A DNA stretch of 64,000 nt from a virus (IMGVR_UViG_3300011116_000574:36658-100657); one strand, 5' to 3'; positions 1-63,353 are shown, numbered from the stretch's first letter. Notes: generated by a model from the letters alone, not told the origin. A program made the numbers and translations.

Positions 1-17
1 GAATTGGGGGGCGGGAA

Positions 18-760
18 TTAAAGTTCCTTATCGTGCTTTTCCCAAGCAATTATAGAACTAAAGATAAGACCTATCATTGAAAACACAAAGCCGACAACAC
101 ACACACCAATTAGAACATCTAACATTAAGACCCCAACTTTTCTACAAGCATTTCCTCATAGTCTACATAGTCTGCTTCCATTAGTTCATCATTGAAATGC
201 CATACCTGATGATTGGGGTCAAATGCAACACCTTCATTTTCAAATTTTACCATTGTGGTGTCAATGTCAATCTCAAACTTATCTGTGTCCTCATCATAAA
301 AAACTACAAAATGATACTGCATTATTCTACTTCCAATCCATAAACATCATACTCAAAATGCTGACTGACTATTTTTAGGTCGTCTGCCATAAGTTCGTCA
401 AAAATCTTTATGGCTTCCTCTTGTGTGTCGGCTTCTATGATGTCCTCAAACTCGGTTACTCGTTTAGATGAAAAATAATAATTTGGCATTACACCACCTT
501 TTCCAAAATCTTAGTTAGTTGTTCTAGTGCTTCTGGCGATAGTTCATCTACCGCTTTCCAATCTATAACTGCTTCCCAATCTATCATTACTGCCCCACTC
601 CAAAATCTGTTGCTACAATTTCAACTGCTTCATCAAGACAGTCAATTAGATTTGCTAATTGTTCTGGGGTCAAATCCTCTACCATAAAACTAGGTAATTC
701 GGACTTCCACGCTATCTGTGAGCGGTAAGTATTGCCACACTCGGCACATTGTTCTGACAT
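18..760 (-). CDS. Operon of five small hypothetical ORFs (587-760, 489-587, 322-489, 125-322, 18-125)
   Basis: Translated by hand. Each stop overlaps the next start as TAATG. The first ORF has an RBS (GAAAGGA) and an array promoter upstream. Confidence 0.75.
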
Positions 761-896
761 TTGTTTTCCTTTCGGTAGGTTTATGTTTCAATGGTACACC
801 ATAGGTCAGACATAAATCAAGGATAATCCAGAGAAATTTTAAGTGTTTCGTAATTGACAACCCCGCAGCAGCGGGGTACCCCGAAGGGTGGTAGAT

Positions 897-1100
897 CTAA
901 CTACCCCACTCTATGCTTACTTGGGCGGAACTACCAAATAGTGCCTGGACAAAACCATTAGCATAGTAACGGTGGTTCTCGTTATCTTTATCAAACTCAA
1001 ATGGAACCTTGCTCAAAAACTCTTGCCAATGGTGGTCTATGTCCTCTGAATAGACAGACCAGTTACCCTCGCGGTATTGGCGACTAATAGTTGCTCTCAT
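897..1100 (-). CDS. hypothetical protein
   Basis: ORF track. ATG at 1100 follows the upstream stop. Confidence 0.7.
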   Translation of the reverse strand: MRATISRQYREGNWSVYSEDIDHHWQEFLSKVPFEFDKDNENHRYYANGFVQALFGSSAQVSIEWGS

Positions 1101-1101
1101 C

Positions 1102-1428
1102 TTATCCCCCAAATAATTCGTTTAGTTTGTCAATGTCGTTGCCGTTCACAATTTCACGCACTTTTTCAGAAACACCGTCAAACTTGCGAACAAAGTAATC
1201 GCCTGTGTCACCGCTTATGCTGTATGTGACAGACTTGGCTTCTGTTGTGTGTTGTGTGTTGTTGTACATAACATCTGAACCAAACTCTAGACGACCAATA
1301 AAGTCAATCATACCTTCGGTAGTAATGTCAGAAAGACCAAAGCCGTATTCACCTGTTTCCAACATCATACGGATAATGTCTGTTTCATCATAGGTTGTTT
1401 CAATTCGGGCGGTAATTTGATAGGTCAT
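1102..1428 (-). CDS. hypothetical protein
   Basis: 108-aa ORF with TAATG coupling to the upstream ORF. Confidence 0.75.
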   Translation of the reverse strand: MTYQITARIETTYDETDIIRMMLETGEYGFGLSDITTEGMIDFIGRLEFGSDVMYNNTQHTTEAKSVTYSISGDTGDYFVRKFDGVSEKVREIVNGNDIDKLNELFGG

Positions 1429-1664
1429 TAGTTTATTTCCTTTTCATAGTTGATGATTGTAAATGATTTTGTTTCCTCGTTGTAAATACACTTTACCATA
1501 AAAGTCATACAATGTAAAGAGATTTTGTAAGTTCTTACTTCTAGGTCATAAAAAAAGTTGTCGCCCTCCCATTCAATAGGGCAAGCGTTCCAAAGAAGTT
1601 CGTGCATAAAACTATCTTTGGATACAGGTTCTAATGTTTCTAGTAATCGTTTCATTTGGCTCAT
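1428..1664 (-). CDS. hypothetical protein, probably leaderless
   Basis: ATG lies 6 nt after the -10 TATTCT, with no SD. Confidence 0.7.
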   Translation of the reverse strand: MSQMKRLLETLEPVSKDSFMHELLWNACPIEWEGDNFFYDLEVRTYKISLHCMTFMVKCIYNEETKSFTIINYEKEIN

Positions 1665-1789
1665 ACATAAAGAATAGCAGGTACATCTGACAAAATCAAG
1701 AATAATTCCAGAGATTTTTTGGCAGCTTCGTAATTTACATTACGAAAGATCGGGTTATCCCGCACCCACCCCAAAGGGTGGGCGGTGGA

Positions 1790-1933
1790 TTAGAGCCACT
1801 CTGTCAAATCACCATCACCATAGTAATCTTGCTTATGACCATCTGCTTCAGCAATTACTTCCCAAAGTTCATCTTCGGTAAAATCGCCATCTGGATACCA
1901 CTCTGCTAGTAATTCATAAACTGCTTTATCCAT
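1790..1933 (-). CDS. small acidic hypothetical protein (MDKAVYELL...)
   Basis: 47 aa translated by hand, TAATG coupling. Confidence 0.65.
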   Translation of the reverse strand: MDKAVYELLAEWYPDGDFTEDELWEVIAEADGHKQDYYGDGDLTEWL

Positions 1934-2118
1934 TAAAATAAATCCTCTACTTCCTCTACTGAATAGCCGTGAGCAAACCTATGAGCAATTACAATACGCA
2001 TACTGTCGGTTGCTTCGTCAATCGCTTCCCACATTTCCTCTGTCCAATCATTGGTGTCTAGCAAGAGAATGCCCTCGCCATCACCATAGTTTCCGTCTGT
2101 TGCGAAATAATGTCCCAT
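1933..2118 (-). CDS. hypothetical protein
   Basis: ORF track, start MGHYF chosen by TAATG overlap. Confidence 0.7.
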   Translation of the reverse strand: MGHYFATDGNYGDGEGILLLDTNDWTEEMWEAIDEATDSMRIVIAHRFAHGYSVEEVEDLF

Positions 2119-2447
2119 TACACTTCCTGCCAAATCATCATACTCTCAAACGAGTAACCATTTACTGTATTTTTAGTTAGGTCAATCTCTACCCACTCTG
2201 ACCAATTATCAAATGTGACTTTAGGATTTACGGCAAAGATACCATAACCTGTTTCATCAAGGATTTCATTTTGGATTAGGTGTGAAATAACCATACGAGT
2301 CCAATAAGAGTGGTCGCCTATTCGTGGTTGTGCGTGGCGAATTGCTTGGGCTAAATCGTGTTCCCAACTGTCTGCCCCCCAATGTGAATAAAGTGCGACT
2401 GCGTGGTCAGTTCCGTCATTGAATACAAAGGTTACTCTAGCACCCAT
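2118..2447 (-). CDS. hypothetical protein (MGAR...LYSHWG type)
   Basis: RBS and array promoter upstream. The MG-R...Y-HW-G pattern is recalled from phage early proteins. Confidence 0.75.
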   Translation of the reverse strand: MGARVTFVFNDGTDHAVALYSHWGADSWEHDLAQAIRHAQPRIGDHSYWTRMVISHLIQNEILDETGYGIFAVNPKVTFDNWSEWVEIDLTKNTVNGYSFESMMIWQEV

Positions 2448-2594
2448 AATTTTCTCTCTTTCGGTAGGTTGATAAATCAAGTGTAGCAGTCTTGTCTGAC
2501 ATTTTCAAGGATAATTCCAGAGATTTTTGAACATCTTCGTACTTGACAACCCCGCAGCAGCGGGGTATCCCGCCTTTCGGCGGGGCTTTAATGG

Positions 2595-2864
2595 TTATTC
2601 CCAGAAGTCCTGTATTTCAGACAAGTCGTTGATACTTTCAATGTTGGCTCGCTCATAGCATAGGTAAAGCGTATTTAGTAAAGCGTGACCAATCATAGAA
2701 GCGGTGTCATAAGAAGCCAAATCTGCTTCTGTTAGATAATCAAAGTCAAATTCTTTTTCTGTTTCTGATAAAGCAAATAGGTATTGCTCTACAAGAGTTT
2801 CAAAGTCAATGAACATCTTGCCCTCGTGAACCATTGAATTTAGTTCGCCGTCTGCTATAAACAT
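2595..2864 (-). CDS. hypothetical acidic protein
   Basis: Single-gene cassette with GAAAGGAAAG RBS. Confidence 0.75.
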   Translation of the reverse strand: MFIADGELNSMVHEGKMFIDFETLVEQYLFALSETEKEFDFDYLTEADLASYDTASMIGHALLNTLYLCYERANIESINDLSEIQDFWE

Positions 2865-2984
2865 TTCTTTCCTTTCGGTAGGTTATGTAATAATCTTAGC
2901 ACACATTACCGACATTTTCCAGAGAAATTTTAACTAATCGTAAATAAGCTGAAAAAGATCGGGGTAGCCCGAAGACCCAGTTTG

Positions 2985-3191
2985 TCAAACTGGGTCGCAG
3001 GTGGTGTAGAAAAATTGGATACTATCCGCAGGAACATAAATTATTTCATCACCTGTTTTTGTTTCAAAAGATAGTAATCCGTTTTCAATACGGAAAGCAT
3101 TGTCTGGGTGAACATCTGGGAACTCATAGGGGTTAGCAATTCCGTTTGGTTGTTCTTTGTAGACAATGTGTAAGTTAGTTTGAAATTCCAT
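2985..3191 (-). CDS. hypothetical protein
   Basis: ORF with GAGGA RBS. Confidence 0.7.
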   Translation of the reverse strand: MEFQTNLHIVYKEQPNGIANPYEFPDVHPDNAFRIENGLLSFETKTGDEIIYVPADSIQFFYTTCDPV

Positions 3192-3296
3192 TTAGTAGTC
3201 CTCTTTCGCTTCTGGTACACTAGCACCGCATAGCATACAGGTTGGGTTGGTTCTGTCTGTTACATTGACAATCGGGTGAACTTTACACTCTTTCAT
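3192..3296 (-). CDS. tiny Cys/His peptide (MKECKVHP...CMLCG)
   Basis: 34 aa translated by hand, fills the gap between whiB and the 2985-3191 ORF. Confidence 0.5.
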   Translation of the reverse strand: MKECKVHPIVNVTDRTNPTCMLCGASVPEAKEDY

Positions 3297-3498
3297 TTTT
3301 CAATAACGCCTTTCGCTCGTCACCGAGTAGACCGCCATAAATACCGTCTACACTTTCATTTGAGAGTGCGAACTCTAAGCACTCTGATTTTACAGGGCAA
3401 GCGTTACACAATGACAACGCCAACGCCCTATCTTTTAGTTTGGCACTAAAAAAGATTTCTGGGTCTGCCTCTAAGCAATTTGCCTTATCCTGAAACAT
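3283..3498 (-). CDS. whiB: WhiB-family Fe-S transcription factor
   Basis: CLEADPEIFF...CNACPVKSECLEFAL...GIYGG...ER gives four Cys plus the G[IV][WY]GG turn. Start MFQDK follows GAAAGG. Confidence 0.93.
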   Translation of the reverse strand: MFQDKANCLEADPEIFFSAKLKDRALALSLCNACPVKSECLEFALSNESVDGIYGGLLGDERKALLKNERV

Positions 3499-3656
3499 AA
3501 TCTGCCTTTCGTTTGTTGGTAATACTATTATGACACACGCCACCGACATTTTTGGTAGCGACACGCACAATTTCAGAGATTTTTTTGGGGCTTCGTAATT
3601 TGACAAACCCCGAAGATCGGGGTACCCCGATCCCCCACGAAGTGGGGGCGGGAAGG

Positions 3657-4124
3657 CTAAAGTCCCAACCCTTCGGCAAGAGAGTTAGCAATTGCTCTAA
3701 CCTCTATTGCCCAATGCTCTGATAAGTCATCTTCAAGCATCTTTTCTGATAAGTCAAAGAGTTGTTTTACATAGTCTGGAACGCTGTCAGGTTGTGTTAC
3801 TAGGTCTTCATCTTCATCAAGCCAAGCATCATCTACATAGTCTTCATCATAGCACCAAGCGGATAGGTGGTGTTGTTCAATGATTGCCCAAGCAGGTGCG
3901 GTTGATTTACCATTTTTGTAGAATACACCTTCAGGCAGTTCAATTTCTAGACTGCCATTGTCTTCATTGTAAGCGTTGATTGCTTCAATACAAGGCTGAA
4001 CCATAGTCAATGGGATTGGTGGATAGTGATTGCTTGTTAGTTGAATAGCAATTTGCTGTTCAAGGCTAATGTCAATACCGTATTCTGATAGACTTGCTAA
4101 GTCGTTTGCTGTGTTGTTACCCAT
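3657..4124 (-). CDS. hypothetical protein (NHYPPIP...IIEQHHL)
   Basis: 155-aa ORF. Confidence 0.75.
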   Translation of the reverse strand: MGNNTANDLASLSEYGIDISLEQQIAIQLTSNHYPPIPLTMVQPCIEAINAYNEDNGSLEIELPEGVFYKNGKSTAPAWAIIEQHHLSAWCYDEDYVDDAWLDEDEDLVTQPDSVPDYVKQLFDLSEKMLEDDLSEHWAIEVRAIANSLAEGLGL

Positions 4125-4129
4125 AAGAG

Positions 4130-4273
4130 TTACCAACCTTTCTTGTGTTTTAGTTTGCGAGTGTAGGCTTTCTTATTTTTATGACCACCGCTTGCGTTGG
4201 AACGGCGTAATTCCAAGCGAGCCTGTAACTGTTCAGGTGTTGCCTGTGTTGCTGTAATCATTTTCTTTTTCAT
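4130..4273 (-). CDS. small basic protein, leaderless (RRSNAS...HKNKKAYTRKLKH)
   Basis: ATG lies 6 nt after TATTCT. 47 aa, very basic. Confidence 0.7.
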   Translation of the reverse strand: MKKKMITATQATPEQLQARLELRRSNASGGHKNKKAYTRKLKHKKGW

Positions 4274-4462
4274 ACCTAAAGAATAGCACACCTCACCGAC
4301 AATTTCCAGCATAACCCAGAGATTTTTTTGGAGTGTCGTAATTTGACAACCCCGCTCTGGCGGGGTATCCCGATCAGCCAGCTTTGTCAAGTCGGCTGTC
4401 GGTGTGTCTAATCTTTTTCGCTAAGAATTATGGCGATAAATTGCAATAGCATATAAATTAGT

Positions 4463-4996
4463 CTATTCATGTGAACCCCTGTAAATTATCCAGATTAGTG
4501 CTTGTGTTGTGCGAGGTGTTAGCCCCATTGCCTTAGCAACATCTTTAACCGCTTGTGCCATTTCGCGGTATTGTGTTTTATTTGGTGCATTGGTATCTAG
4601 TCCACCTGCGTAGCACATCCATACATCTATCGTTACCGCATTTTCATCGCCAGCAATTGCACGAGCGAACGCATTAGTTTTTAAGCCTTTAAGTGCATTG
4701 AACCCTAGCACTAAACTATTTTGTGCCATAACTAAATTGTTTTTTAGTCCTGTCGCTTTTCCTGTGTGTGCGAATTCTAACGCTTGCACAACATTTCTTG
4801 CCCAACGCTGACGAGGTGAGAATGATGAAACAACACTAGCACCATTTTCAATAGTTGCTTTTATGCCACGACTAGCAAGAATACGCACAACATCGTGTGC
4901 CACTAATTCTGCATCTGCATACCATTGCGTAGCCAATTCAATTTGGGTAGCGGTTGCCTTTTTTGCAATTGCGAGGTAGTGGTTGAAGTAATCCAT
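4463..4996 (-). CDS. putative HhH-GPD-like DNA glycosylase-fold protein
   Basis: WY...SP-x2-W-x2-N...K-x2-AF...GD-x2-AVTIDVW...QA-x2-W pattern. Confidence 0.55.
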   Translation of the reverse strand: MDYFNHYLAIAKKATATQIELATQWYADAELVAHDVVRILASRGIKATIENGASVVSSFSPRQRWARNVVQALEFAHTGKATGLKNNLVMAQNSLVLGFNALKGLKTNAFARAIAGDENAVTIDVWMCYAGGLDTNAPNKTQYREMAQAVKDVAKAMGLTPRTTQALIWIIYRGSHE

Positions 4997-5122
4997 TTTT
5001 GCTCTTTTCGGTAGGTTGTAGTAATACTGTACCAGATACCGCCGACATTTTCCAGAGAAATTTTAGGCGTGTCGTAACTTGACAACCCCGCCTTGGCGGG
5101 GTACCCCGAAGGGTGGTGGGAA

Positions 5123-5419
5123 TTAGTTTTCCCAACCAAACAAAGAGCCTTCCGCATAGTCATCAATCATGTAGTCCATGTCACCAGAACCAAAAATAGC
5201 GTTCCAACAGTCACCGCAAGTACCTGTAATAAAGCGTTCACGAACATCAACATCAAAATCAGATAGGACATCTTGAACATAAGCACCTTGATTGTATGCG
5301 TACAGTTTTTCAGGGGAAATCTGAATAGTGATAGTTTCATCACAGGTTGGGCAAACCTTAGAAGTAACTGAATAAGCGGATAGGTCGGCGGTCTTGACAA
5401 TGTTATTTAGAGTGAACAT
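5123..5419 (-). CDS. Zn-ribbon hypothetical protein
   Basis: CPTC...RERFITGTCGDCW. Confidence 0.75.
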   Translation of the reverse strand: MFTLNNIVKTADLSAYSVTSKVCPTCDETITIQISPEKLYAYNQGAYVQDVLSDFDVDVRERFITGTCGDCWNAIFGSGDMDYMIDDYAEGSLFGWEN

Positions 5420-5538
5420 TTTTTCTCCTTTAGGTTAATAGTTTTATTGTAGCATAACGCCCAGACATTTTCTAGAGATTATTTTGTGGTGTCGTAACAA
5501 GGCGAAGCTTGGCGGGGTACCCCGCAGGGTGATTGGGA

Positions 5539-5760
5539 TTATGCATCCCAACCAAAAAGGTATCCCTCAAAGCCCCTGTCCTCGTCACCCTCGTCAACTT
5601 CACAGACACACTCGTCTGTGCCACCGCAACTTGGGCATTCGTTGTCGTAGTCGTAGTCAGAGTATGGGTCATAAGTGTCAAGCAAAGCCTGTGTCCTTTC
5701 ATCCTCAAATTGGTTATTCCAGATTTCCATCATTGTTTCGGCGGTGTAGAACTCATCCAT
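5539..5760 (-). CDS. acidic Cys-containing hypothetical protein
   Basis: GAGGAG RBS. CPSCGGTDECVC. Confidence 0.7.
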   Translation of the reverse strand: MDEFYTAETMMEIWNNQFEDERTQALLDTYDPYSDYDYDNECPSCGGTDECVCEVDEGDEDRGFEGYLFGWDA

Positions 5761-5897
5761 AGGTACTCCTCAAGGTTAGGTTGATAAAATAATTGTAGCA
5801 GGGTGCGGTGACATTTTTCAGAGATTTTTAAGGGGTGTCGTAACAAGGGTTGGAGATCGGGGTACCCCGAAGGGCTGTGCTTGTCAAGCCGACACGC

Positions 5898-6083
5898 CTA
5901 CAAGACATTGTATGTTGCTAAAAAAACAAAAAGAGGGGAAAAACAAATAAGCAACATCAGAGGCAGGTCAAAACGGTATGCCTTGCCATTTGTTTTTTCA
6001 TAATTATCTAGTTCAATAGCACCTAACCAACTAAAACCAAAGGTAATAAGTGATAGTGCCGAAGCGATTAAGATTGTTTCCAT
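5898..6083 (-). CDS. small membrane protein
   Basis: Two hydrophobic segments, AGGAG RBS. Confidence 0.7.
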   Translation of the reverse strand: METILIASALSLITFGFSWLGAIELDNYEKTNGKAYRFDLPLMLLICFSPLFVFLATYNVL

Positions 6084-6092
6084 TTTTTCTCC

Positions 6093-6233
6093 TTATGAGT
6101 AGTAATCGGCTAGAGTGTCAAAGTCTGAATAATAGGCAGGGTCATCATAAGCACCATAGCATTCTGGGCAAAGTAGGTTGCCATTGTTTCCAACATAGTC
6201 CATTTCAATTTCGCAAAATACGCAAAGTTCCAT
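6093..6233 (-). CDS. small Zn-finger-like protein (MELCVFC...CPEC)
   Basis: 46 aa translated by hand, GGAG RBS and promoter. Confidence 0.65.
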   Translation of the reverse strand: MELCVFCEIEMDYVGNNGNLLCPECYGAYDDPAYYSDFDTLADYYS

Positions 6234-6384
6234 TTTTATCTCCGTTCGTTATGCTTCAATTTTAACACAGGCTACTGACATTTTTCCAGAGATTTTTTGA
6301 GTGTGTCGTAACTTGACAAAGATCAAAAACGGGGTACCCCGCAGGGGTCGGCGTGTCAAGTCGACACGCCGAGTGTCTTGTGAA

Positions 6385-6537
6385 TTACCGCAAGGTAATC
6401 CATTTTGTTTCGGTATCAGTTTCCACCAATACACGAACAATTTTATCGCCACTCTTGGTGGTCTGTTCTGCTACATCTAGGGCAACACCTGATGTGTTAC
6501 CGCTTGCTGATGTTACTAGGTCTCCGATTTTTACCAT
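6385..6537 (-). CDS. small beta-rich protein, paralogue 1 (MVKIGDLVTSASGNTSG...KWITLR)
   Basis: Translated by hand. Near-identical to 7487-7672 and 8171-8326. Confidence 0.8.
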   Translation of the reverse strand: MVKIGDLVTSASGNTSGVALDVAEQTTKSGDKIVRVLVETDTETKWITLR

Positions 6538-6548
6538 TTGGTTCTCCT

Positions 6549-6797
6549 TTAGTTTGATGTTGCTATTGTAGCGGATAGGTCTGACAATTCTTGATTTACT
6601 CCGTCAATTTCTCGCTGTAAAGTTTCGGTGAGTTGTCGCTTTCCAAAGCCATTATCTAAGCCAATGGATAAAAGATAACCAACCTTTATCCAACCGTGTA
6701 GGCGGTCAGCGGTTCTTGGGTATTTTATTTTATCCAATTCATACACAGCATTTACTAATTCCTCAGAAAGGTCTGCGAGTAATTTTTTGTCTGTCAT
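6549..6797 (-). CDS. hypothetical protein
   Basis: Start MTDKK after GGAG. Its 3' end overlaps the next promoter. Confidence 0.7.
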   Translation of the reverse strand: MTDKKLLADLSEELVNAVYELDKIKYPRTADRLHGWIKVGYLLSIGLDNGFGKRQLTETLQREIDGVNQELSDLSATIATSN

Positions 6798-6851
6798 TTG
6801 TTTCTCCATTTCGTTTGATGTTTTAATTTTAGCACGAGCCACCGACAAAAA

Positions 6852-6956
6852 TTATTTTTGAGTTGCTTTTGCGATTTGTGCTATTTTTTTGGCATCTGCT
6901 TTACGCTGTTCGTCACGCTCTGCTTTTACCATTTTTTTCCAGTCATCAAAATTCAT
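6852..6956 (-). CDS. small basic helical peptide (MNFDDWKK...)
   Basis: AGGAG RBS, own promoter. Confidence 0.65.
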   Translation of the reverse strand: MNFDDWKKMVKAERDEQRKADAKKIAQIAKATQK

Positions 6957-7113
6957 TTTTTCTCCTATTGGGTTGGTAGTTCTATTATGACAGACACCAC
7001 CGACATTTTTCAAGGATAACTCAGAGATTTTTTGGGCGTGTCGTAACTTGACAAAGATCAAAAACGGGGTACCCCGCCCACCCCACTTTGTCAAGTAGGG
7101 TGGGGTCTTTGGG

Positions 7114-7287
7114 TTAGAACGGAACTTCATCCCAAAGGCTTTCCTGCTCACGCATTTCATCATAGAAAAAATCAGGGTCGCACTCTGGACACATAATCAT
7201 CTCGCACTCGCAAGGGATGCCGTCAAACATCCAATCTGGAGATGAGGTCTTGAAACTGACAGGGGCGGTGAAATCAAAATCTGACAT
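7114..7287 (-). CDS. small acidic Cys protein (MSDFDF...CECEMIMCPEC...DEVPF)
   Basis: 57 aa translated by hand. Confidence 0.65.
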   Translation of the reverse strand: MSDFDFTAPVSFKTSSPDWMFDGIPCECEMIMCPECDPDFFYDEMREQESLWDEVPF

Positions 7288-7486
7288 TTTGAGCCTTTCG
7301 GTTGGTGAATACTAAAATTGTAACACAGGGGGCAGACATAAATCCAGAGAAAAATAAGGTGTGTCGTAACTTGACAAAGATCAGAAAACGGGGTACCCCG
7401 ATCTAATCCAGAGATTTTATTTTATCATCGTAACTAGAAGAATAAGCTGCCCCGCCAGGGGCGAATTTTTTCGCTGTTGAAGTGGA

Positions 7487-7672
7487 TTACCGTAGGGTAA
7501 TCCATTTCATTTCGTTACTGTCAGTTTCCACTAACACGCGAACAATTTTTTCACCAGACTTAGTGGTGAAAGGTTGAACATCAACCGCCACGCCTGAAGT
7601 GTTGCCACTCGCAGAAGTGACGAAATCGCCAACAGTTACATTTTCCAATAATGCTTCAAGAATGTTACCCAT
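7487..7672 (-). CDS. small beta-rich protein, paralogue 2
   Basis: VGDFVTSASGNTSGVAVDV...KWITLR. Confidence 0.8.
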   Translation of the reverse strand: MGNILEALLENVTVGDFVTSASGNTSGVAVDVQPFTTKSGEKIVRVLVETDSNEMKWITLR

Positions 7673-7726
7673 TTTTATCTCCTTTGTTTATGTTTCAATT
7701 GTAGCAGGGGGGACTGACAAAAATTA

Positions 7727-7867
7727 CTAATGTAATTCTGAACAGTCTTTCATAGTACCGTCAAGCAGATACTCTACGCAATAACCGCAAACTGTGTTTA
7801 GGTCACATACAGGGCAAGATACCCACTCTGACCACTCATCACAAAACATTGAACAATAATCTAACAT
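7727..7867 (-). CDS. small Cys-rich protein
   Basis: Translated by hand, CPVC...CGYC. GAGG RBS and promoter. Confidence 0.6.
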   Translation of the reverse strand: MLDYCSMFCDEWSEWVSCPVCDLNTVCGYCVEYLLDGTMKDCSELH

Positions 7868-8014
7868 TTGAACCTCTTTTCTTTATACCAAAATTGTACC
7901 ACGCACCACCGACAAAAATTGAAACGACACGCCCAAACCCAGAGAATTTGACAAGGCTTCGTAACTGTGATAAAATTTTTGCCCCTGGCGGGGCGAAATT
8001 TTCGCCCCACTTTT

Positions 8015-8104
8015 TTATCGGTCTTTTAGAATTCCAAAAGCGATTACGAATAGGGCTAGGGGTACGAACATTACGAACTCTGAGTGAATAAAGTTGTGTA
8101 GCAT
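8015..8104 (-). CDS. 29-aa membrane peptide
   Basis: MLHNFIHSEFVMFVPLALFVIAFGILKDR, with its own promoter. Confidence 0.55.
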   Translation of the reverse strand: MLHNFIHSEFVMFVPLALFVIAFGILKDR

Positions 8105-8170
8105 TTTATCTCTTTTCTTTTTGGTTATGGAATTAGTTTAGCGGATAGGTGTGACATTTTTTGAGGTGGA

Positions 8171-8326
8171 CTACCGTAGGGTAATCCACTTCAATTCGTT
8201 ATCTTTAGTTTCAACCAAAACTCTAACGATTTTTTCGCCAGCCTTAGTTGTCATAGGGTTCACCTCTACGGCTACGCCTGAAGTGTTGCCACTTGCCGAT
8301 GTTACCAAATCGCCGATGTTTGTCAT
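8171..8326 (-). CDS. small beta-rich protein, paralogue 3
   Basis: MTNIGDLVTSASGNTSG...KWITLR, AAGGAG RBS. Confidence 0.8.
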   Translation of the reverse strand: MTNIGDLVTSASGNTSGVAVEVNPMTTKAGEKIVRVLVETKDNELKWITLR

Positions 8327-8532
8327 TTGCGACTCCTTTTCTTTTTGTTGATAAATCAATAGTACCATACGCCACCGACATTTTTTGACAGACACGCCGA
8401 CAAAATAGATCCAAATTGTATACAATGTTTTTTGCGACACGCCGTCAGAGAATTTGACAACCGCTCGTAAATAAGCTAAAATTTTTGCCCCTGGCGGGGC
8501 GAAATTTTTTCGCTATTTTTTTCGGCGGGCGA

Positions 8533-8649
8533 TTATGATTTTTCCTCGCTCTCTTTACTATCTGCACACGCAGAATAAATAAATACGAATGGCATTGATG
8601 CGAATACGATTACGGATACGGTTAGGGTTATGTTTAGTAGTGTTAGCAT
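8533..8649 (-). CDS. 38-aa membrane peptide
   Basis: Translated by hand, own promoter. Confidence 0.55.
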   Translation of the reverse strand: MLTLLNITLTVSVIVFASMPFVFIYSACADSKESEEKS

Positions 8650-8704
8650 TTTTTCTCTTTTCGTTAGGTTGATGTTTCAATTGTAGGGGATAGGTACGAC
8701 ATTT

Positions 8705-8902
8705 TTACCAATTAGGTTTCATACCCTTGTGAGTGTCGCAAGTGTTTCCTGTACCTTGTTGGATAGGGCAGAAACAAATTACACAAGCAATTTGAACGGC
8801 GTTAGGGGTAACTAGGGCTAGTTCCAATTCAACGCTATCGGCGAATGATAGTTCGCTACTGTCAATCTGATTTTCACCATTTACGATTTTGATGTATCCC
8901 AT
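8705..8902 (-). CDS. hypothetical Zn-binding protein
   Basis: MGYIK...CVIC...CDTH, own promoter. Confidence 0.65.
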   Translation of the reverse strand: MGYIKIVNGENQIDSSELSFADSVELELALVTPNAVQIACVICFCPIQQGTGNTCDTHKGMKPNW

Positions 8903-9128
8903 TTTTTTCTCTTTTCTTTTTCTTGATGTTTCAATTGTAGCGCATAGCACCGACATTTTTTGACAGACACGCCAGAGATTTTTGCGGGGCAAAAATTGAA
9001 CAAATGTTCAAATTGGCGGGGCAAAAATTTTACCATAGGGGTATGACAAAAACGGTTAGCGACACGCCGAAAATAAAAAAACATTGGATACAATCTTTTT
9101 TCAAAACACTAGCCAAAATGCCCAAAAA

Positions 9129-9150
9129 TGTCGGCGGTATGTGTTACCAT
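9129..9150 (+). promoter_or_regulatory. array-type promoter, divergent orientation
   Basis: TGTC-N12-TACCAT. A second copy lies at 9352-9373 (TGTC-N12-TACAAT). Confidence 0.8.
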
Positions 9151-9184
9151 TGATGTATCAACAAAAAATGAAAGTAGGTTCAAA

Positions 9185-9343
9185 ATGGACATTTTGGAAA
9201 AAGTAGTCAAGCAACGCCTAGCAAATGCTAAGGCAACCGCAACCAATTTTGATGAATTGGGTTATGACAGTAGTGCCGAATTTTGGCATAGTGTCGCTGG
9301 AATTCTTGAAGCAATTCTTGATGAGGCAGAGATTTGGGCATAG
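9185..9343 (+). CDS. hypothetical protein
   Basis: Start MDILEK, downstream of the promoter at 9129. Confidence 0.7.
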   Translation: MDILEKVVKQRLANAKATATNFDELGYDSSAEFWHSVAGILEAILDEAEIWA

Positions 9344-9407
9344 CCCAAAAATGTCTGCCCTATCCGCTACAATTGACACATAAACAAAAAATGAAAGTTG
9401 GTAAAAA

Positions 9408-9707
9408 ATGTCATACTCTTACAATCCTAACGGCGAAAAGGTTCACGCCTACATTTTGGAACTAGACGCAATTTCGTTCGGCGTACTAATGGCGAATTTC
9501 GCGCATAGTATTTTTTCAAATGATAGTTGCGCCTACACAATTGAGAAATGGTGGAAATTCTGTGATGATGTAGCAGAATGGCTAATTTATGATGATGAGG
9601 AATTTGCGAATTCCCTAAACATTTATACGCCGACAGAATGCGCCGATTGTGGCGGAAAAGGTTGGTCATTGAACCCGATTGAACACGAATACTATTGCGG
9701 TTCATAA
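9408..9707 (+). CDS. hypothetical protein
   Basis: 99-aa ORF downstream of the promoter at 9352. Confidence 0.7.
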   Translation: MSYSYNPNGEKVHAYILELDAISFGVLMANFAHSIFSNDSCAYTIEKWWKFCDDVAEWLIYDDEEFANSLNIYTPTECADCGGKGWSLNPIEHEYYCGS

Positions 9708-11065: not shown

Positions 11066-11214
11066 AATAATATATATACCTTAATATAGATTATATAATT
11101 CTATAACTTATATAATTTATATTATTTATATAGGTTATATTATCTTATATATAAGAAAGTATAATGATAAAATTCAAAATTGTCAAATTAGAAATTATAT
11201 TTTATAATTAAGCC

Positions 11215-12186
11215 ATGAAGGTTTCTTTTACGGGTGCTCCCGAACATATGTATGTAGCTCTAGGCTATGGTAACGCATCTTGGCATATTTTTCAAAGTAT
11301 GAAGAAATTAGGTTTAGATCCCGTGGTTCGGGATAAAGAAGCAAAGGTTGGTATTTCTTTCTGTCAACCCGCTCATTATTCCTTCGGCGAAAATCAATAT
11401 AAAATTGGTTATACACCTTGGGAGTCTACAGAATTTCTTCCTAATTGGCAAGAGGGCTTAGAATTAGCAGATGAAATTTGGACTACATCGCATTGGAATA
11501 AGAAAATCTTTGAAGCTAAGTTAGATAAAGAAGTATTTGTCTACTTGCATGGTATAGACAAAGAGTTTATGCCTATGAAGCGTAAATGGGATAGATCAGA
11601 GCCATTTACCTTCTTACATATTGGCGAGCCATTTAATCGTAAAGATGGTCAACTTGTTGTAGATGTATTTGCAAGGCTCTATGGCAACGACCCCCGCTAC
11701 CGCCTGATTATGAAATGTACAAAGTCAAACATGCTAAGTCTGATGAATATGCCACCAAATCTAGTTTGCAACAACATTATCATCAGAAATGATGTTATTT
11801 CTCGTGAAGAACTCATCGACCTATACGCATCTGTTCAATGCTTTGTATATCCATCTTGGGGAGAAGGTTTTGGATTTAATCCACTTCAGGCACTAGCTAT
11901 GGGTATTCCAACTATTTGTACCGCAGAGTGGGCGGAGTACAAAGATAGAATTACACTACCTCTTGACTCTGAATCCGCATGGTCTCCTTGGCAAGAAGTT
12001 CACCCTGGATATATGGTAAAACCTAGTGCAGAACAACTTGCTCAACATATGGTAGAGGTTGTAGAAAACTATGATAAATATTGTGCAGTAGCATTTAAGA
12101 ACTCTGTAAAAGTTCATAGAGAATATGACTGGGATCTTGTTACAAGACCCGCTGCAGGTAGATTAAAAAAAATTATAAAAAACTAG
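11215..12186 (+). CDS. GT-B glycosyltransferase (GT4-like)
   Basis: RKDG...FVYPSWGEGFGFNPLQALAMGIPTI. Confidence 0.9.
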   Translation: MKVSFTGAPEHMYVALGYGNASWHIFQSMKKLGLDPVVRDKEAKVGISFCQPAHYSFGENQYKIGYTPWESTEFLPNWQEGLELADEIWTTSHWNKKIFEAKLDKEVFVYLHGIDKEFMPMKRKWDRSEPFTFLHIGEPFNRKDGQLVVDVFARLYGNDPRYRLIMKCTKSNMLSLMNMPPNLVCNNIIIRNDVISREELIDLYASVQCFVYPSWGEGFGFNPLQALAMGIPTICTAEWAEYKDRITLPLDSESAWSPWQEVHPGYMVKPSAEQLAQHMVEVVENYDKYCAVAFKNSVKVHREYDWDLVTRPAAGRLKKIIKN

Positions 12187-12250: not shown

Positions 12251-14179
12251 ATGAGCGGGATAGAAAATCCTTATGAAAACTTTATTGCGCTTAGCCGTTA
12301 TGCTCGTTGGCTAAGCGAAGAAAATAGACGAGAAACTTGGTCAGAGACCGTAGATAGATATTTTGATTATATTCAAAAACATCTAAAGGACAAGCATGGC
12401 TATGTGCCAGATGAAAAGCTTGTTGCCGAATTAAAACAATTTGTATTCGATAGAAATGTAATGCCTAGCATGCGTTCAGTTATGACCGCAGGTACTGCGT
12501 TGGAAAGAGATAATGTTGCAGGATATAATTGCTCTTTTCTTCCTGTCGACTCACTTCGTTCATTCGATGAAGCAATGTATATTCTTATGTGTGGAACAGG
12601 GGTAGGTTTCTCAGTAGAGAGTATGTATGTGAATAAGCTTCCAGTAATTGCAGAGTCATTCGAAAAGACCGACACAATTATTGTTGTAGAAGATTCAAAG
12701 GCGGGCTGGTCAAAAGCACTGCGTGAACTTATTGCATTACTATATCAGGGTCAGATTCCTGCAATTGATGTTTCTAAGGTCCGACCTGCTGGTGCAAGAC
12801 TAAAAACTTTTGGTGGTCGTGCATCTGGTCCTCAGCCATTAATTAATCTTTTTGATTTTACTATCAAAACATTTAAGCATGCTGCTGGTCGTAAACTAAA
12901 GCCTATTGAAGCGCATGATGTCATGTGTAAGATCGGCGAGGTAGTTGTAGTCGGTGGTGTACGCCGTAGTGCTATGATTTCTCTTTCCGACCTCAGCGAT
13001 CACGATATGGCAACGGCAAAAACAGGTGCTTGGTGGGAGAATCATCCACAAAGAGCATTGTCTAACAACTCAGTTGCATTTGCTGGAAAGCCAGAAATGA
13101 ATGACTTTATTGCAGAATGGAAATCTGTTTATGACTCTAAGTCTGGTGAGCGTGGTATTTACAATGTAAAAGCTGCACAAACACAAGCAGCAAATTTTGG
13201 TCGCAGAGATTCAGAAATTCATTATGGAACTAATCCCTGCTCCGAAATCATTCTTAGACCATATCAGTTCTGTAATCTTTCAGAAGTTGTACTTCGTGAA
13301 GAAGACACAGTTGAGCATATTGCTCGTAAAGTAGAGTTGGCAACTATTCTTGGAACTTGGCAGTCAACCCTAACAGACTTTAAGTACTTGCGTAAAATTT
13401 GGAAAGATAATACAGAGGAAGAGCGTTTACTTGGAGTTTCACTTACTGGTCAGTTTGGTCATAAGTATATGTCTGGTCAACAGGGGCTTGAAAAGCTCGC
13501 TAACACCCTTGACTTTCTTAGAGAACTTGCAGTAACAACAAATGTTGAAGAGGCTGGCAAAATTGGAATTAATCCATCTGCAGCAATTACCTGCGTAAAG
13601 CCATCTGGAACTGTATCTCAGCTAGTTGGAGTTTCATCTGGCATGCATCCTTGGCACAGCGATTACTATATTCGCACTGTTCGTGGAGATAAAAAAGATC
13701 CACTAACTCAATTCCTAAAAGATTCTGGAATTCCCGCCGAAGATGATTTTATGAAGCCAAATGACACTACTGTTTTTTCATTCCCAATGAAAGCACCTAA
13801 AAATGCTATTAAGCGTAATGATCTTACAGCAATTGAACATTTAAATGTTTGGCTTACATACCAAAGACACTGGTGTGAGCATAAGCCATCAATTACAGTT
13901 TCTATTCGTGAAGACGAATGGATGGAAGTTGGTGCTTGGGTATACAAGCACTTTGATGAATTATCTGGAGTTTCGTTCCTGCCATATTCTGAACACACCT
14001 ATGTACAAGCACCTTATCAGGATGCTACAAAAGAAGAGTATGATGCTTTTGTAAAGAAAATGCCAAAGCATATTGCTTGGGAAAATCTTTCCCTTTACGA
14101 AACAGAAGATAATACTACTGGTTCTCAATCACTTGCCTGTACAAGTGGAGAATGTGAATTGGTAGATATTGGGGCATAA
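12251..14179 (+). CDS. nrdJ: class II (B12-dependent) ribonucleotide reductase
   Basis: PSMR, YNCSF, TNPCSEI, CNLSEV, TCVKPSGTVSQL and C-terminal ACTSGEC. Confidence 0.93.
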   Translation: MSGIENPYENFIALSRYARWLSEENRRETWSETVDRYFDYIQKHLKDKHGYVPDEKLVAELKQFVFDRNVMPSMRSVMTAGTALERDNVAGYNCSFLPVDSLRSFDEAMYILMCGTGVGFSVESMYVNKLPVIAESFEKTDTIIVVEDSKAGWSKALRELIALLYQGQIPAIDVSKVRPAGARLKTFGGRASGPQPLINLFDFTIKTFKHAAGRKLKPIEAHDVMCKIGEVVVVGGVRRSAMISLSDLSDHDMATAKTGAWWENHPQRALSNNSVAFAGKPEMNDFIAEWKSVYDSKSGERGIYNVKAAQTQAANFGRRDSEIHYGTNPCSEIILRPYQFCNLSEVVLREEDTVEHIARKVELATILGTWQSTLTDFKYLRKIWKDNTEEERLLGVSLTGQFGHKYMSGQQGLEKLANTLDFLRELAVTTNVEEAGKIGINPSAAITCVKPSGTVSQLVGVSSGMHPWHSDYYIRTVRGDKKDPLTQFLKDSGIPAEDDFMKPNDTTVFSFPMKAPKNAIKRNDLTAIEHLNVWLTYQRHWCEHKPSITVSIREDEWMEVGAWVYKHFDELSGVSFLPYSEHTYVQAPYQDATKEEYDAFVKKMPKHIAWENLSLYETEDNTTGSQSLACTSGECELVDIGA

Positions 14180-14192
14180 CTAATGCTTCATT

Positions 14193-14219
14193 AAGACCCC
14201 GCCTTTTGGCGGGGTCTTT
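14193..14219 (+). terminator. intrinsic terminator
   Basis: AAGACCCCGCC-TTTT-GGCGGGGTCTTT. Confidence 0.85.
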
Positions 14220-14236
14220 GTATTTCTACCTTAAAG

Positions 14237-14245
14237 TGGTATAAT
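14237..14245 (+). promoter_or_regulatory. extended -10 promoter, TGGTATAAT type
   Basis: The same TGnTAnnnT motif precedes gene blocks at about 20427, 22402, 25319, 28381, 29262, 44770, 53817 and 55098. Confidence 0.65.
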
Positions 14246-14276
14246 TTTGTTATAAATCTTATGGAATGGTCGTGGC

Positions 14277-14657
14277 ATGGCAACTAAAGCAAATTTTGAA
14301 CATATTCAGGGAGATAATTTTCGCCTGAATATTACATATTATGATTCAAGCGGTAGCGTTGTAAATCTATCGGGTTACTCTGCCGTACTTGAGGTTAGAG
14401 ATCAGCCTGGTGGTCAACTTTTATGCACCACTGCCTCTATTGGTTCAATTCCATCAAGTGGATCTTATTCTGGACTATATATATCTACCCCAAGTGCTTC
14501 TAGTGGGGCTTTAATTATTAATCTTCCAGGAACTGAAACAGCTAATTTCAATTACCCACGATCATCATATCAGATTAGAGTTCAGAGTTCGGGTGGGATA
14601 AAAGATACCCTTGCTCATGGATGGATTTCTGTAGATGCGGGTACCATTGACATATGA
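14277..14657 (+). CDS. virion-associated protein (BppU-N-like)
   Basis: IQGDNF...VNLSGYSA...G-x-I-x-V pattern. Confidence 0.6.
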   Translation: MATKANFEHIQGDNFRLNITYYDSSGSVVNLSGYSAVLEVRDQPGGQLLCTTASIGSIPSSGSYSGLYISTPSASSGALIINLPGTETANFNYPRSSYQIRVQSSGGIKDTLAHGWISVDAGTIDI

Positions 14658-15925
14658 GCGATAACTATTCCATAATTGAACCAATAATACATACAGTTAG
14701 TGCTACACAAATAACCAACACTGTTGTTGTTTCATCTCCAGGTCCACAAGGTCCAATTGGAGAATTTCAGCCTTCAAGTATTCCAACTGCATATCCAATA
14801 ACAAATGCTTCTGGAACAATTGGATACAATACATCTTATATTCCAGCTAGTGCTACATATTCTTCAAGTGCTGGTATTTCATCATCTACTACTCAAACAA
14901 ATTTTAACTCCCTGACTATAAGTGGTTCGAATGTGGCAACACAACAATATGTTTTGGCAAACATTCCAGCTTCTGCCCAATATGCTGGAAGTTCACAGTA
15001 TGCTACAAATTCTGGAAGTTCAAGTTATGCGACATTATCATCTAGTGCAAATATATCATCAAGCACTAACTATATTTTAGGATCTAATGTATCTGGTGCA
15101 GTTGCTAGTGCTACAATTTCAGCAAGCGGAATTATATCATCTAGTGCTAATATTTCTTCAAGTGCCATAACATCTTCAAGTGCTACAATCTCTTCTAGTG
15201 CAAACATATCAGCATCAGCAAACTATGCTATTAACTCTGAAAGTTTAAATGGTCAACCAGGTTCTTATTATGCTCCCGCCACATCTAGTGTTGGAATTGG
15301 TTCTACCAGAATTACTTTAAATACAACAACATCATCTTTAGGCGGGGTTTTAATAAACAATAGCTCATCAGTATTATCTCCACTTTTAATTCTTAATAAT
15401 ACTAATACGCAACCTTCAACTACTCAAGGTACGCTGTATTATGAAACAAACACCTTTAGTCCGACAATTGTTACTGACACTACCAGCCCAATTCACATGC
15501 TTCAGCAAGTTATGATTAGAGCGGTAAATGATAGTAATGCAACAATATCTAAGGGTCATGCTGTATACTTAAGTGGAGCACAAGGAAATAGACCTGCAGT
15601 AAAGTTAGCAATTGCTTCAAGTTCCACAACACATGATGTTATTGGTCTTGTATATGACGATATTGCAGCTCATCAAGATGGTTGGATTATTATACAGGGT
15701 CTTATAGAAGGCGTTGACACAAGAGCTTATACAGAAGGTGAATACATTTACCTTTCTGCAGCAAGTGCTGGAGGAATAACTTCTACAGCACCTTCTTATC
15801 CAAACTACGCCTATGTTGTTGCACAAGCACTTAATTCAACTGTTCAAGGCAAACTCCTTGTTAAGGTATATGATGCTTATAATCAAGTTAATATACCAGG
15901 AGCAATTCAGTTCTCTGATGGATAG
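14654..15925 (+). CDS. Ser/Ala-rich tail-fibre/decoration protein, part 1
   Basis: PGPQGP motif, SSSANIS repeats, C-terminal KGHAVYLSG...G-x-IEGVDT domain. Confidence 0.7.
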   Translation: MSDNYSIIEPIIHTVSATQITNTVVVSSPGPQGPIGEFQPSSIPTAYPITNASGTIGYNTSYIPASATYSSSAGISSSTTQTNFNSLTISGSNVATQQYVLANIPASAQYAGSSQYATNSGSSSYATLSSSANISSSTNYILGSNVSGAVASATISASGIISSSANISSSAITSSSATISSSANISASANYAINSESLNGQPGSYYAPATSSVGIGSTRITLNTTTSSLGGVLINNSSSVLSPLLILNNTNTQPSTTQGTLYYETNTFSPTIVTDTTSPIHMLQQVMIRAVNDSNATISKGHAVYLSGAQGNRPAVKLAIASSSTTHDVIGLVYDDIAAHQDGWIIIQGLIEGVDTRAYTEGEYIYLSAASAGGITSTAPSYPNYAYVVAQALNSTVQGKLLVKVYDAYNQVNIPGAIQFSDG

Positions 15926-55152: not shown

Positions 55153-55821
55153 ATGGGATTAGTTAAAGGTTTATCCGCTATGAACAAGGCTTTGGACAAG
55201 CCGTCTTATTCAGAAGATAGTCCAAAAGGTCGTTGGCTAAAGCTTAACGATGGTCAGAGTGTTAAGATTCGTTTCCTGCAGGAACTTGACCCAGACTCAA
55301 AGAGTTATGTTGCAGATGCAGGTCTTGGCTTTATTGCCGTAGAACACACAAATCCAACAGATTACCGCCGTAAGGCTCTGTGCTCTATTGAAGATCAGGG
55401 GCGTTGTTATGGCTGTGAGCAGCATCGCCGTGATCCAAAGGCTGGCTGGAAGGGTCGTAGTCGTTTGTACATTAATGTACTTGTAGATGATGGCACAGAA
55501 GAGCCATATGTTGCAATTTTCTCGCAGGGTGCAGGTCCTAAATCTGCTACCCCAGAAATTATTCAGTATGCTGGTGAAACAGGAAGTATCTCGGATGTAA
55601 TCTGGCGTTTGAAGCGCACAGGTGAAAAGACAGATACCAATTACAGCATCATTCCACTTCCAACTGCAGACATTCAGCCAGTTGATGTTACTAAGTACGA
55701 AATCATCGATCTTGAAAAGGTTGCTGTTCGTGATGTAACTTATGATGAACAAGAAGATTTTTATCTTGGTCGTTCATCCACCAATGATGATTCATCTTCA
55801 TCCTCTTCCGTAGAGTGGTAA
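55153..55821 (+). CDS. single-stranded DNA-binding protein (gp32-like)
   Basis: KIRFL, R-x-G-x-x-TDT-x-Y, acidic/Ser tail, replication context. Confidence 0.7.
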   Translation: MGLVKGLSAMNKALDKPSYSEDSPKGRWLKLNDGQSVKIRFLQELDPDSKSYVADAGLGFIAVEHTNPTDYRRKALCSIEDQGRCYGCEQHRRDPKAGWKGRSRLYINVLVDDGTEEPYVAIFSQGAGPKSATPEIIQYAGETGSISDVIWRLKRTGEKTDTNYSIIPLPTADIQPVDVTKYEIIDLEKVAVRDVTYDEQEDFYLGRSSTNDDSSSSSSVEW

Positions 55822-60247: not shown

Positions 60248-60532
60248 ATGAGTGATGCCTACATCCTAGAGGGTATCGAAGACGATTACCTTTTAGTAAT
60301 AAAAGCGGAAGATCAAGAAACTATCTTGAGTATTATAGATAGGTTGAGCACCAGTCGCTCAAAATGGATTAAAGAACTGGCATCAATATTAGAAGAGAGT
60401 TTACATGACACTGGTCGCAGAAGAGATTCTAGCAAAACTAGACCCAAAGACACGCCAAAGAGTACAAATGGCAACAAGCGTAGACGCACAAAAACAGCAA
60501 ACACCAAGCATCGGTCTAAACCTCGCACTTAA
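60248..60532 (+). CDS. hypothetical protein overlapping recA
   Basis: Start lies just after TATAAT. The 3' 128 bp overlap recA. Confidence 0.55.
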   Translation: MSDAYILEGIEDDYLLVIKAEDQETILSIIDRLSTSRSKWIKELASILEESLHDTGRRRDSSKTRPKDTPKSTNGNKRRRTKTANTKHRSKPRT

Positions 60533-63069: not shown

Positions 63070-63353
63070 TATGTGCAAATGAAGGTTGCGAAAACGAATT
63101 CGATCCAAAAACTCATAACATGAAATACTGTGGCGATGAGTGTTGCCGTGAAGCGACTAATGCAAAAATTAAACAAAAGTATTATGATAAAAAGGCAAGG
63201 TTGGCTGGTCAAAAAAGAACTTGCTCTAACAAAGGCTGCACCACCACACTCAACAGATATAACCCATCTAATGTTTGTGAAAACTGTGTTGCTAATGAAA
63301 AGCTAGAACAACAAAAAAAATTATTGGGGATGATTAAGAATGTCTCTCGCTGA
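63066..63353 (+). CDS. Cys-rich Zn-finger protein
   Basis: Several Cys pairs. Confidence 0.75.
   Translation: MICANEGCENEFDPKTHNMKYCGDECCREATNAKIKQKYYDKKARLAGQKRTCSNKGCTTTLNRYNPSNVCENCVANEKLEQQKKLLGMIKNVSR

Follow-up and report, generated by a model that had tools for sequence, protein, structure and literature searches.

The DNA analysed here is a window of 64,000 nucleotides, bases 36,658-100,657 of the 100,657-bp viral contig IMGVR_UViG_3300011116_000574 (window positions carry the prefix w). At its left end lies an array of small minus-strand genes separated by a repeated composite element, which we call the scaffold. The scaffold is about 100-160 bp long, and most units of the array start with one. 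We consider it probable that the array is an early-type region of autonomous mini-operons, whose phased scaffolds double as homology for recombination. Scaffolds are the preferred joints of rearrangement between related arrays, although not the sole ones. In the following, G0 (G000) is the phage under study, and G003, L135-L140, L144 and L146 are related genomes.

Structure and extent of the array

Read on the minus strand, the full scaffold is composed of a gene-specific hairpin, a G-run/C-run mini-hairpin, an upstream module (P_A), a promoter-like motif (P_B) and a Shine-Dalgarno leader, in this order. An earlier note on this DNA had described a unit plan of this kind; the full form does occur, but it shares the array with a second, minimal type of junction, in which the stop codon of the upstream gene lies within a conserved TAAAAA-TGTC and the terminator is absent. 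P_A (TTACGA-N12-14-TCTCT[GA]) comprises Box 1, an A-tract and Box 2; P_B was searched in its strict form as TGTC-N9-TGN-TANNNT, and as TGTC-N12-[TC]ANNNT for the count in the window.

P_A has 20-21 copies over the whole contig, all of them on the minus strand, where shuffles predict 0.0. The array contains all 19 occurrences of CGGG-N4-CCCG (0.1 expected), eight of which are exactly CGGGGTACCCCG; strict P_B occurs 18 times (0.5 expected), likewise confined to the array and always on the minus strand. The window part has 21 minus-strand and two plus-strand P_B, 15 P_A and 12 palindromes, together with five copies of the CCTACCGAAA leader, which are found on the minus strand only. The scaffold elements picked out in the earlier note are thus present where it had placed them, at copy numbers far over shuffle or chance expectation, and its tally of about 35 open reading frames (ORFs) in about 22 units agrees with our count of about 33-35 ORFs in about 23 units.

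The scaffold-bearing array extends from about w9100 to about w-8450, over about 17.5 kb. Since the outermost P_A copies are at w8469 and w-8441, the array goes on for 8.4 kb past the left edge of the window, a continuation which had been predicted. All scaffold copies of the contig are on the minus strand and in the array, with zero elsewhere in the 100.6 kb. The earlier assignment of the whole of w1-9707 to a minus-strand array is correct for w1-9100, whereas w9100-9707 consists of two plus-strand cassettes with an inverted P_B of the same type. The triplicated gene reported within the array is real, with 76-81% amino acid identity among its three copies.

Folding of the 70 nt 5' of Box 1 gives two or three tandem hairpins with a mean minimum free energy of -24 kcal/mol and a mean z of -3.2 against shuffles, z being below -2 in 15 of 21 copies. 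By folding, the scaffolds contain G3-5/N1-4/C3-5 hairpins as well as gene-specific ones, and a generic scan detected 26 terminator-like sites where 9.7 were expected. Apart from a tRNA-Asp, no Rfam family matched in the array. A possible covarying hairpin around Box 1 in L135 and L136 was seen by eye only and is not claimed. A role of the palindromes as restriction-type decoys or targets was considered and judged incidental, the element being an imperfect palindrome in several relatives.

The consensus of P_B, from 135 copies in eight genomes, is aAAAa-TGTCAGACC-N-TGc-TAnGAT. Its extended -10 element (TGn-TAnnnT) is accompanied by a conserved box, TGTC(A/T)GAC, which spans about -28 to -20 and has a palindromic 7-bp core, GTC(A/T)GAC; no -35 hexamer is conserved, CCAAAA, TTGAAA and CTAAAA all being found. 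The distance from Box 1 to P_B is quantised in all nine genomes examined and falls into classes of 29-31, 40-43, 50-54 and 60-63 bp. As these classes correspond to whole helical turns, the upstream module is likely to be a phased element facing the polymerase at P_B. Upstream promoter elements of the bend or factor-binding type depend on rotational phase. The Box 1/Box 2 module is most likely a phased element of this sort with an activating or regulator-binding role, formed by an A-tract bend or by a factor site.

Some local features of the junctions stand apart from this general plan. Two plus-strand sites (w7940-8016 and w8446-8522) carry a near-consensus promoter, TTGACA-17-TAAAAT (11 of 12 matches; the two copies are 83% alike), with two GC hairpins and a T-run no more than about 10 nt further on. 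Transcription from these sites might yield an antisense RNA some 35 nt long, facing the terminators of minus-strand cassettes. At the junction from gene family g1 to g5 in L135-L138, the end of the upstream gene and the P_B box TGTCAGACCCC form an 11-bp inverted repeat with the box as 3' arm, so that terminator and promoter overlap; G0 has unrelated DNA there instead, in which the promoter is a canonical TTGACA-N17-TACACT. One scaffold carries along a conserved leader (about 40 nt, no Rfam match), which is located before a DUF1281-like cassette in G0 (w about -2570 to -2650) but before another gene in G003 (array position about 11885-11960).

The elements of the array have the following positions in the window.

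1-9100, minus strand: cassette array, window part; the array goes on left of the window
791-883, minus strand: full scaffold (palindrome 872-883, P_A 829-852, P_B 791-812)
1671-1762, minus strand: full scaffold; G0/G003 crossover at w1692-1739
2480-2572, minus strand: full scaffold (palindrome 2561-2572, P_A 2518-2541, P_B 2480-2501)
2893-2971, minus strand: full scaffold; with that at 2480-2572 it brackets a cassette present in G0 only (ORF 2595-2864)
3527-3629, minus strand: full scaffold between g3 and g16
4280-4372, minus strand: full scaffold; G0/G003 crossover on the palindrome, w4362-4371
4463-4996, minus strand: DUF7178 cassette (family g7), position differing among relatives
5026-5108, minus strand: full scaffold; G0/G003 crossover on P_A, w5052-5085
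5446-5524, minus strand: full scaffold, compact 30-bp spacing class
5792-5869, minus strand: full scaffold, compact spacing class
6259-6341, minus strand: full scaffold; palindrome then T-run, intrinsic terminator-like
6385-6537, minus strand: triplicated gene of 50-61 amino acids, copy 1
6565-6586, minus strand: minimal junction, P_B only
6826-6847, minus strand: minimal junction, P_B only
6984-7076, minus strand: full scaffold, 41-bp spacing class, TTGAAA as -35
7317-7432, minus strand: full scaffold with an additional tandem P_A (7409-7432)
7487-7672, minus strand: triplicated gene, copy 2
7698-7719, minus strand: minimal junction, P_B only
7893-8016, minus strand: variant scaffold (P_A 7940-7963, P_B 7893-7914); TTGACA-17-TAAAAT, hairpin and T-run on the plus strand
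8135-8156, minus strand: minimal junction, P_B only
8171-8326, minus strand: triplicated gene, copy 3
8359-8522, minus strand: variant scaffold, second copy (P_A 8446-8469, P_B 8359-8380)
8680-8701, minus strand: minimal junction, P_B only
8934-8955, minus strand: P_B promoter (predicted)
9027-9048, minus strand: P_B furthest upstream of the minus-strand set, divergent from the plus-strand P_B at 9129
9129-9343, plus strand: inverted cassette with P_B (9129-9150) and a small ORF
9352-9707, plus strand: inverted cassette with P_B (9352-9373) and ORF 9408-9707
11158-11208, no strand assigned: divergent canonical promoters at the right end of the minus-strand block

Rearrangements at scaffolds and concerted evolution

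A scaffold pattern search combined with a DUF932 protein search of IMG/VR recovered 14 related contigs with homologous arrays and collinear array flanks; a loose scaffold pattern run over the same database returned chance singletons only. As the earlier note had anticipated, these relatives differ in cassette order and content. The closest, G003, has 70-86% DNA identity to G0 and is collinear with it on both flanks, but its cassette order differs inside the array. Between 8 and 81% of the array aligns to the nearest relative, compared to 94-100% of the flanks, the lowest value being that of w5500-9100 against G003.

Gene-family maps were compared across the 15 arrays. These showed transpositions ([g7], [g6], [g34]; [g1][g5]; g11; g18), a swap of [g4 g29 g10] with [g69 g11 g36], duplications of g65, g49, g20, g25 and g111, and many lineage-specific cassettes. 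Between G0 and G003 nine P_B-scaffold junctions were broken and seven kept, while all 19 junctions without scaffold were kept and none broken. Extended to eight relatives, the comparison gave 49 broken and 39 kept scaffold junctions against 14 broken and 69 kept without scaffold (odds ratio 6.2, nominal p = 1e-7), a test limited to shared families, stricter counts being noisy from spurious small ORFs. Several of the 14 broken junctions without scaffold are scaffold junctions missed by the search pattern.

At four of the nine G0/G003 rearrangement junctions the two alignments overlap by 9-54 bp exactly on the conserved core, three times on P_A (w5052-5085, w1692-1739 and w-2525 to -2579) and once on the palindrome (w4362-4371). 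The cassette found in G0 only (ORF w2595-2864) lies between two scaffolds, and in closer pairs of genomes a cassette between two scaffolds in one corresponds to a single scaffold in the other. Such indels are seen in L139 (575 bp), L137 (1,507 bp) and L136 (1,322 bp), the joints of the latter two sharing 16-42 bp of sequence. Breakpoint ends lie 40 bp or less from a P_A or P_B in 102 of 287 cases (36%), and in 69 of 124 (56%) for large events, where a fraction of 0.18 was expected. The suggestion of the earlier note that breakpoints fall at scaffolds therefore stands as a concentration there, with some inside the core, but not as a rule, many small indels being located elsewhere in tight operons.

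Scaffolds are gained without cargo as well. A complete scaffold of 159 bp is present between g12 and g2 in G0 only, where five relatives have a single base; likewise, the scaffold between g3 and g16 of G0 has its counterpart in an overlap of these two genes in L137, L138 and L140. These two cases indicate that a bare scaffold can be acquired.

While the architecture of the scaffold is constant across genomes, the hairpin core and Box 2 are genome-specific and uniform within each genome. The hairpin core is TA or ATA in G0, CA, CTA, A or AT in G003, TCGA in L135 and L136, CGA or TCG in L137, L138 and L140, and CG in L144. Box 2 reads TCTCTG in G0 and G003 and TCACNG in L146 as well as L135-L140, and the more distant contigs have TCCCC; Box 1 does not vary. 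Within G0 the sub-modules (spacer after the palindrome, six bases after Box 1, spacing class and P_B flavour) combine independently. Uniform genome-specific variants together with mosaic sub-modules indicate copying between sites.

Probable recombination mechanism and alternative readings

Searches for tyrosine and serine recombinases (PF00589, PF00239) gave nothing above cut-off in the contig, whose estimated completeness is about 81%, and the array is in this respect integrase-free as the earlier note had it; neither RecT nor ERF was found in the contig. The phage encodes a recombination set of its own, located at the opposite end of the window.

55153-55821, plus strand: single-strand DNA-binding protein (SSB)
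60405-61409, plus strand: UvsX-like (RecA-family) recombinase
62287-63069, plus strand: Cas4/RecB-type exonuclease
63340-63894, plus strand: RuvC-like Holliday-junction resolvase

As crossovers are spread over the scaffold and no integrase was detected, homologous recombination is favoured over a site-specific system, and we infer that it is the mechanism of cassette exchange. The array would then be a leftward-transcribed early-type region of about 30 autonomous mini-operons of small function-unassigned genes. In each of them the gene-specific GC hairpin and the G-run/C-run mini-hairpin would act as a joint terminator or insulator, P_B would be a host-type extended -10 promoter followed by a short Shine-Dalgarno leader, and the upstream module, at 30, 41, 52 or 63 bp from the promoter, would work in rotational phase. 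Because the same 100 bp or so recur about 20-30 times in one orientation, scaffolds could also serve as portable homology for the UvsX/SSB/exonuclease/RuvC machinery. Recombination between them would move, insert, delete, duplicate or replace cassettes or add a bare scaffold, each product retaining promoter and terminator. Such exchanges would also keep the scaffolds of a genome alike.

A number of points weigh against this reading. A U-tract follows the hairpin in some copies only, and the assignment of P_B as a promoter, of the hairpins as terminator and of the region as early rests on sequence and analogy. The spacing classes may in part derive from the descent of scaffold subfamilies and not from selection for phasing. 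Many indels of 100-270 bp lie within tight operons with no scaffold close by, and when all alignment ends were tested the enrichment at scaffolds was not significant, since alignments fragment inside diverged genes. Scaffolds fill nearly all long intergenic space, so the enrichment of breakpoints could be partly due to selection against breaks within genes. The pairwise comparisons share ancestry and are not independent, hence the nominal p-values, and the incompleteness of the contig is a further reservation.

It is possible, although we doubt it, that the scaffold is a self-spreading "plug-in expression unit" which can be inserted between any two genes, as between g12 and g2, and is homogenised by gene conversion. 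In such a unit the module and the GTC(A/T)GAC box would be operators of a putative phage regulator, co-evolving with Box 2 and switching more than 20 promoters from a fixed face of the helix.

Unlikely in our view is an explanation of the repeats as transcription signals only, alike because of a shared polymerase or regulator, with illegitimate recombination occurring anywhere and selection keeping the intergenic breaks. It would accommodate the non-significant test of all alignment ends and the absence of scaffolds from the ends of about half of the smaller indels; moreover, tight junctions cannot tolerate breaks, which biases the adjacency test towards scaffolds. It does not account for the four G0/G003 joints being alignment overlaps exactly on scaffold cores, for cassette indels bounded by two scaffolds versus one in the relative with 16-42 bp shared at the joint, or for a whole scaffold inserted precisely between a stop and a start codon. 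Mosaic sub-modules and genome-uniform diagnostic variants likewise require copying between sites.

A similarly low probability is given to Box 1, A-tract and Box 2 being a separate second promoter for a phage-modified polymerase, of a middle or alternative class, which would make tandem promoters of different timing with Box 2 co-evolving with the factor. The whole-turn spacing to P_B better fits an upstream element acting on P_B, even if the module is a fixed unit of 25-26 bp with an AT-rich centre and combines a genome-specific Box 2 with an invariant Box 1. Copies of the module that lack P_B are found at w7409-7432 and, twice, at the end of the array, and in some G0 copies a TTGTCA-N16-AAAAAT scores 9 of 12 as a sigma-70-type site; this TTGTCA is, however, missing from the module in most relatives. 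Neither a sigma factor nor a phage RNA polymerase was found in the contig, the search with PF00940 being uninformative as it was without match in any control genome.

Very improbable is a site-specific, integron-like system with the G-run/C-run palindrome cut by a dedicated enzyme (an unrecognised recombinase or HNH nuclease): the palindrome does stand at cassette boundaries, is genome-specific and coincides with one G0/G003 joint, and an HNH endonuclease gene exists elsewhere in the contig, but the contig yielded no tyrosine or serine recombinase, joints are scattered over P_A, palindrome, P_B and leader, cassettes have their own promoter unlike those of integrons, and the palindrome is imperfect in several relatives (cores CA, CTA, A and CGA), which fits a hairpin better than a dimer-binding site.

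Phage relationships, cargo and comparison with known systems

The phage is an uncultured virulent siphovirus of roughly 120 kb and distant kin of the cluster-BE Streptomyces phages (Stanwilliamsviridae). The window codes for portal, prohead protease, major capsid protein, a tape measure protein of 3,281 amino acids, DNA polymerase, helicase and primase, a gene set which identifies a large virulent-type siphovirus. The portal is 53-57% identical in amino acids to that of the cluster-BE phages (about 130 kb), the nearest cultured kin; a megablast search of GenBank phages with the array and with 20 kb of the structural genes gave no match. The contig also carries five plus-strand tRNAs and a transfer-messenger RNA (tag GVSQNTLALAA), as do BE phages.

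An N4-like phage with hairpin promoters was ruled out, the 3,281-amino acid ORF being the tape measure protein. A protein of 1,021 amino acids (w17326-20391) has no Pfam or PDB sequence match, and its language-model features resemble viral concanavalin-A/Laminin_G_3 lectins. That Box 1/Box 2 might be read by a sigma factor or RNA polymerase of the phage was considered and rejected: no candidate was found in the contig, and the protein just described looks like a concanavalin-A-type lectin. Three nucleotide-sugar epimerase-like genes and an aminotransferase on the plus strand left of the window (L133:1428-2441, 12586-15701), together with a glycosyltransferase at w11215-12186, might serve DNA or virion glycan modification.

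None of the array cargo proteins tested has an assignable function. The best conserved array gene encodes a DUF932 protein of 330 amino acids, 49-50% identical to that of gene 2 of BE phages, and is the only cargo clearly common to the array and the BE terminal repeat. Cluster-BE phages carry a direct terminal repeat of 10.7-11.5 kb (PMC5764925). Their DUF932 gene, at 1.2-2.2 kb on the minus strand, is found at two places per record and is therefore inside this repeat; in G0 and in BE phages it has the same strand and the same position beside the structural genes. In the repeat of Samisti12, small minus-strand genes follow one another at distances of 100-190 bp, and the gaps contain a GC hairpin, a palindrome centred on GGGCCC, a promoter of the form TGn-TAGACT and the leader CGAAAGG; this makes the scaffold plan family-wide. 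The order of the contig (plus-strand block, array, structural genes) is that which a collapsed terminal repeat would give. By analogy we infer that the array is the counterpart of the long terminal-repeat early region of BE phages and is located in a terminal repeat.

Several features lie at the DUF932 cassette or at the far end of the array. A tRNA-Asp gene is located just upstream of the DUF932 cassette (G000 35347-35421, minus strand; w about -1310 to -1236), and tRNA-like 3' ends are present at the same place in G003, L136 and L137. Just downstream of the last two P_A, four DnaA boxes (TGTGGATAA), preceded by three GTACAATTTTG iterons, and an AT-rich stretch (L132:9940-10060; w about -8600 to -8720) may mark the boundary of a terminal repeat or an origin of replication; scaffolds of several relatives likewise contain single DnaA boxes. 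Beyond this region, four or five small minus-strand ORFs with overlapping start codons (L132:8800-9900) each end in ...DGEQ* and may be a paralogous family.

The likeness to terminal-repeat early regions proposed in the earlier note is apt, given the DUF932 homology and the scaffold plan of Samisti12. Like the early regions of BE phages (PMC5764925), SPO1 and T5, the array has 10-20 kb of small function-unassigned one-strand genes beside structural genes; the Box 1/Box 2 module, found in G0 and not seen in Samisti12, and a shared cargo limited to DUF932 set it apart from the BE repeat. The searchable literature yielded no account of repeated scaffolds or shuffled cassettes in BE phages or Stanwilliamsviridae.

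The term "integron-like" used in the earlier note, in contrast, does not hold. Integrons resemble the array in that their cassettes are small, mostly of one gene, bounded by repeated elements and subject to rapid turnover. They have an IntI tyrosine recombinase beside the array, promoterless cassettes read from a single Pc promoter, and attC sites with a fixed crossover point; here no integrase was found and there is no attC-type site, each cassette has its own predicted promoter and usually a terminator, and crossovers are spread across the scaffold. In T4 middle promoters a MotA box at -30 is combined with TAnnnT (PMC2988021). P_B resembles them in that a conserved box about 12 bp upstream of TAnnnT replaces the -35, its sequence being unrelated to the MotA box. 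No homologue of the activator MotA or the co-activator AsiA was found, no search having been aimed at them; the P_B box may reflect a host or spacer preference. In halovirus HF2 (PMC8707807), repeated viral intergenic sequences act as promoters, a role predicted for the scaffolds described here; HF2 is an archaeal virus with different motifs.

The closest parallel is that with the promoter-early stem-loops (PeSLs), which are repeats some 100 bp long that combine a strong early promoter of sigma-70 type, an AT-rich upstream stretch and a stem-loop, often of a G-run and then a C-run, serving as terminator or attenuator (PMC2839356, PMC4122927). They sit before ORFans in hyperplastic regions of T4-type myoviruses, with indels between close relatives at the elements (phi1/RB49, PST/T4 and nt-1/KVP40) and mini-circles (PMC2839356, PMC4122927). 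The comparison, already drawn in the earlier note, is sound on structural and comparative grounds (stem-loop, hyperplastic ORFan region, indels at motifs). The scaffold is likewise an intergenic composite repeat of about 100 bp with predicted terminator and promoter, a G-run-then-C-run stem-loop, an AT-rich stretch 5' of the promoter and the stop codon of the upstream gene inside the element; it precedes ORFans in a hyperplastic region with indels and replacements bounded by elements, in a phage which, like the T4-type PeSL phages, has its own UvsX-type recombination system. The array differs in belonging to a siphovirus unrelated to T4, in forming one co-oriented array of about 18 kb and not several scattered regions, in having an extended -10 promoter with a box at -28 to -20 and no consensus -35, and in its extra bipartite upstream module spaced in whole helical turns and clearly genome-specific hairpin and Box 2.

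Regulatory cassettes as recombination joints would thus not be peculiar to T4-like myoviruses, but would also shape the entire early region in a distinct lineage of siphoviruses, where such arrays probably hold and exchange host-takeover or counter-defence genes. The comparative case is unusually clear, with collinear flanks, joints within repeats, insertion of a bare scaffold and concerted evolution, and the presence of the same scaffold plan in the terminal repeat of a cultured Streptomyces phage makes the idea, including the role of the phased module, open to bench testing.

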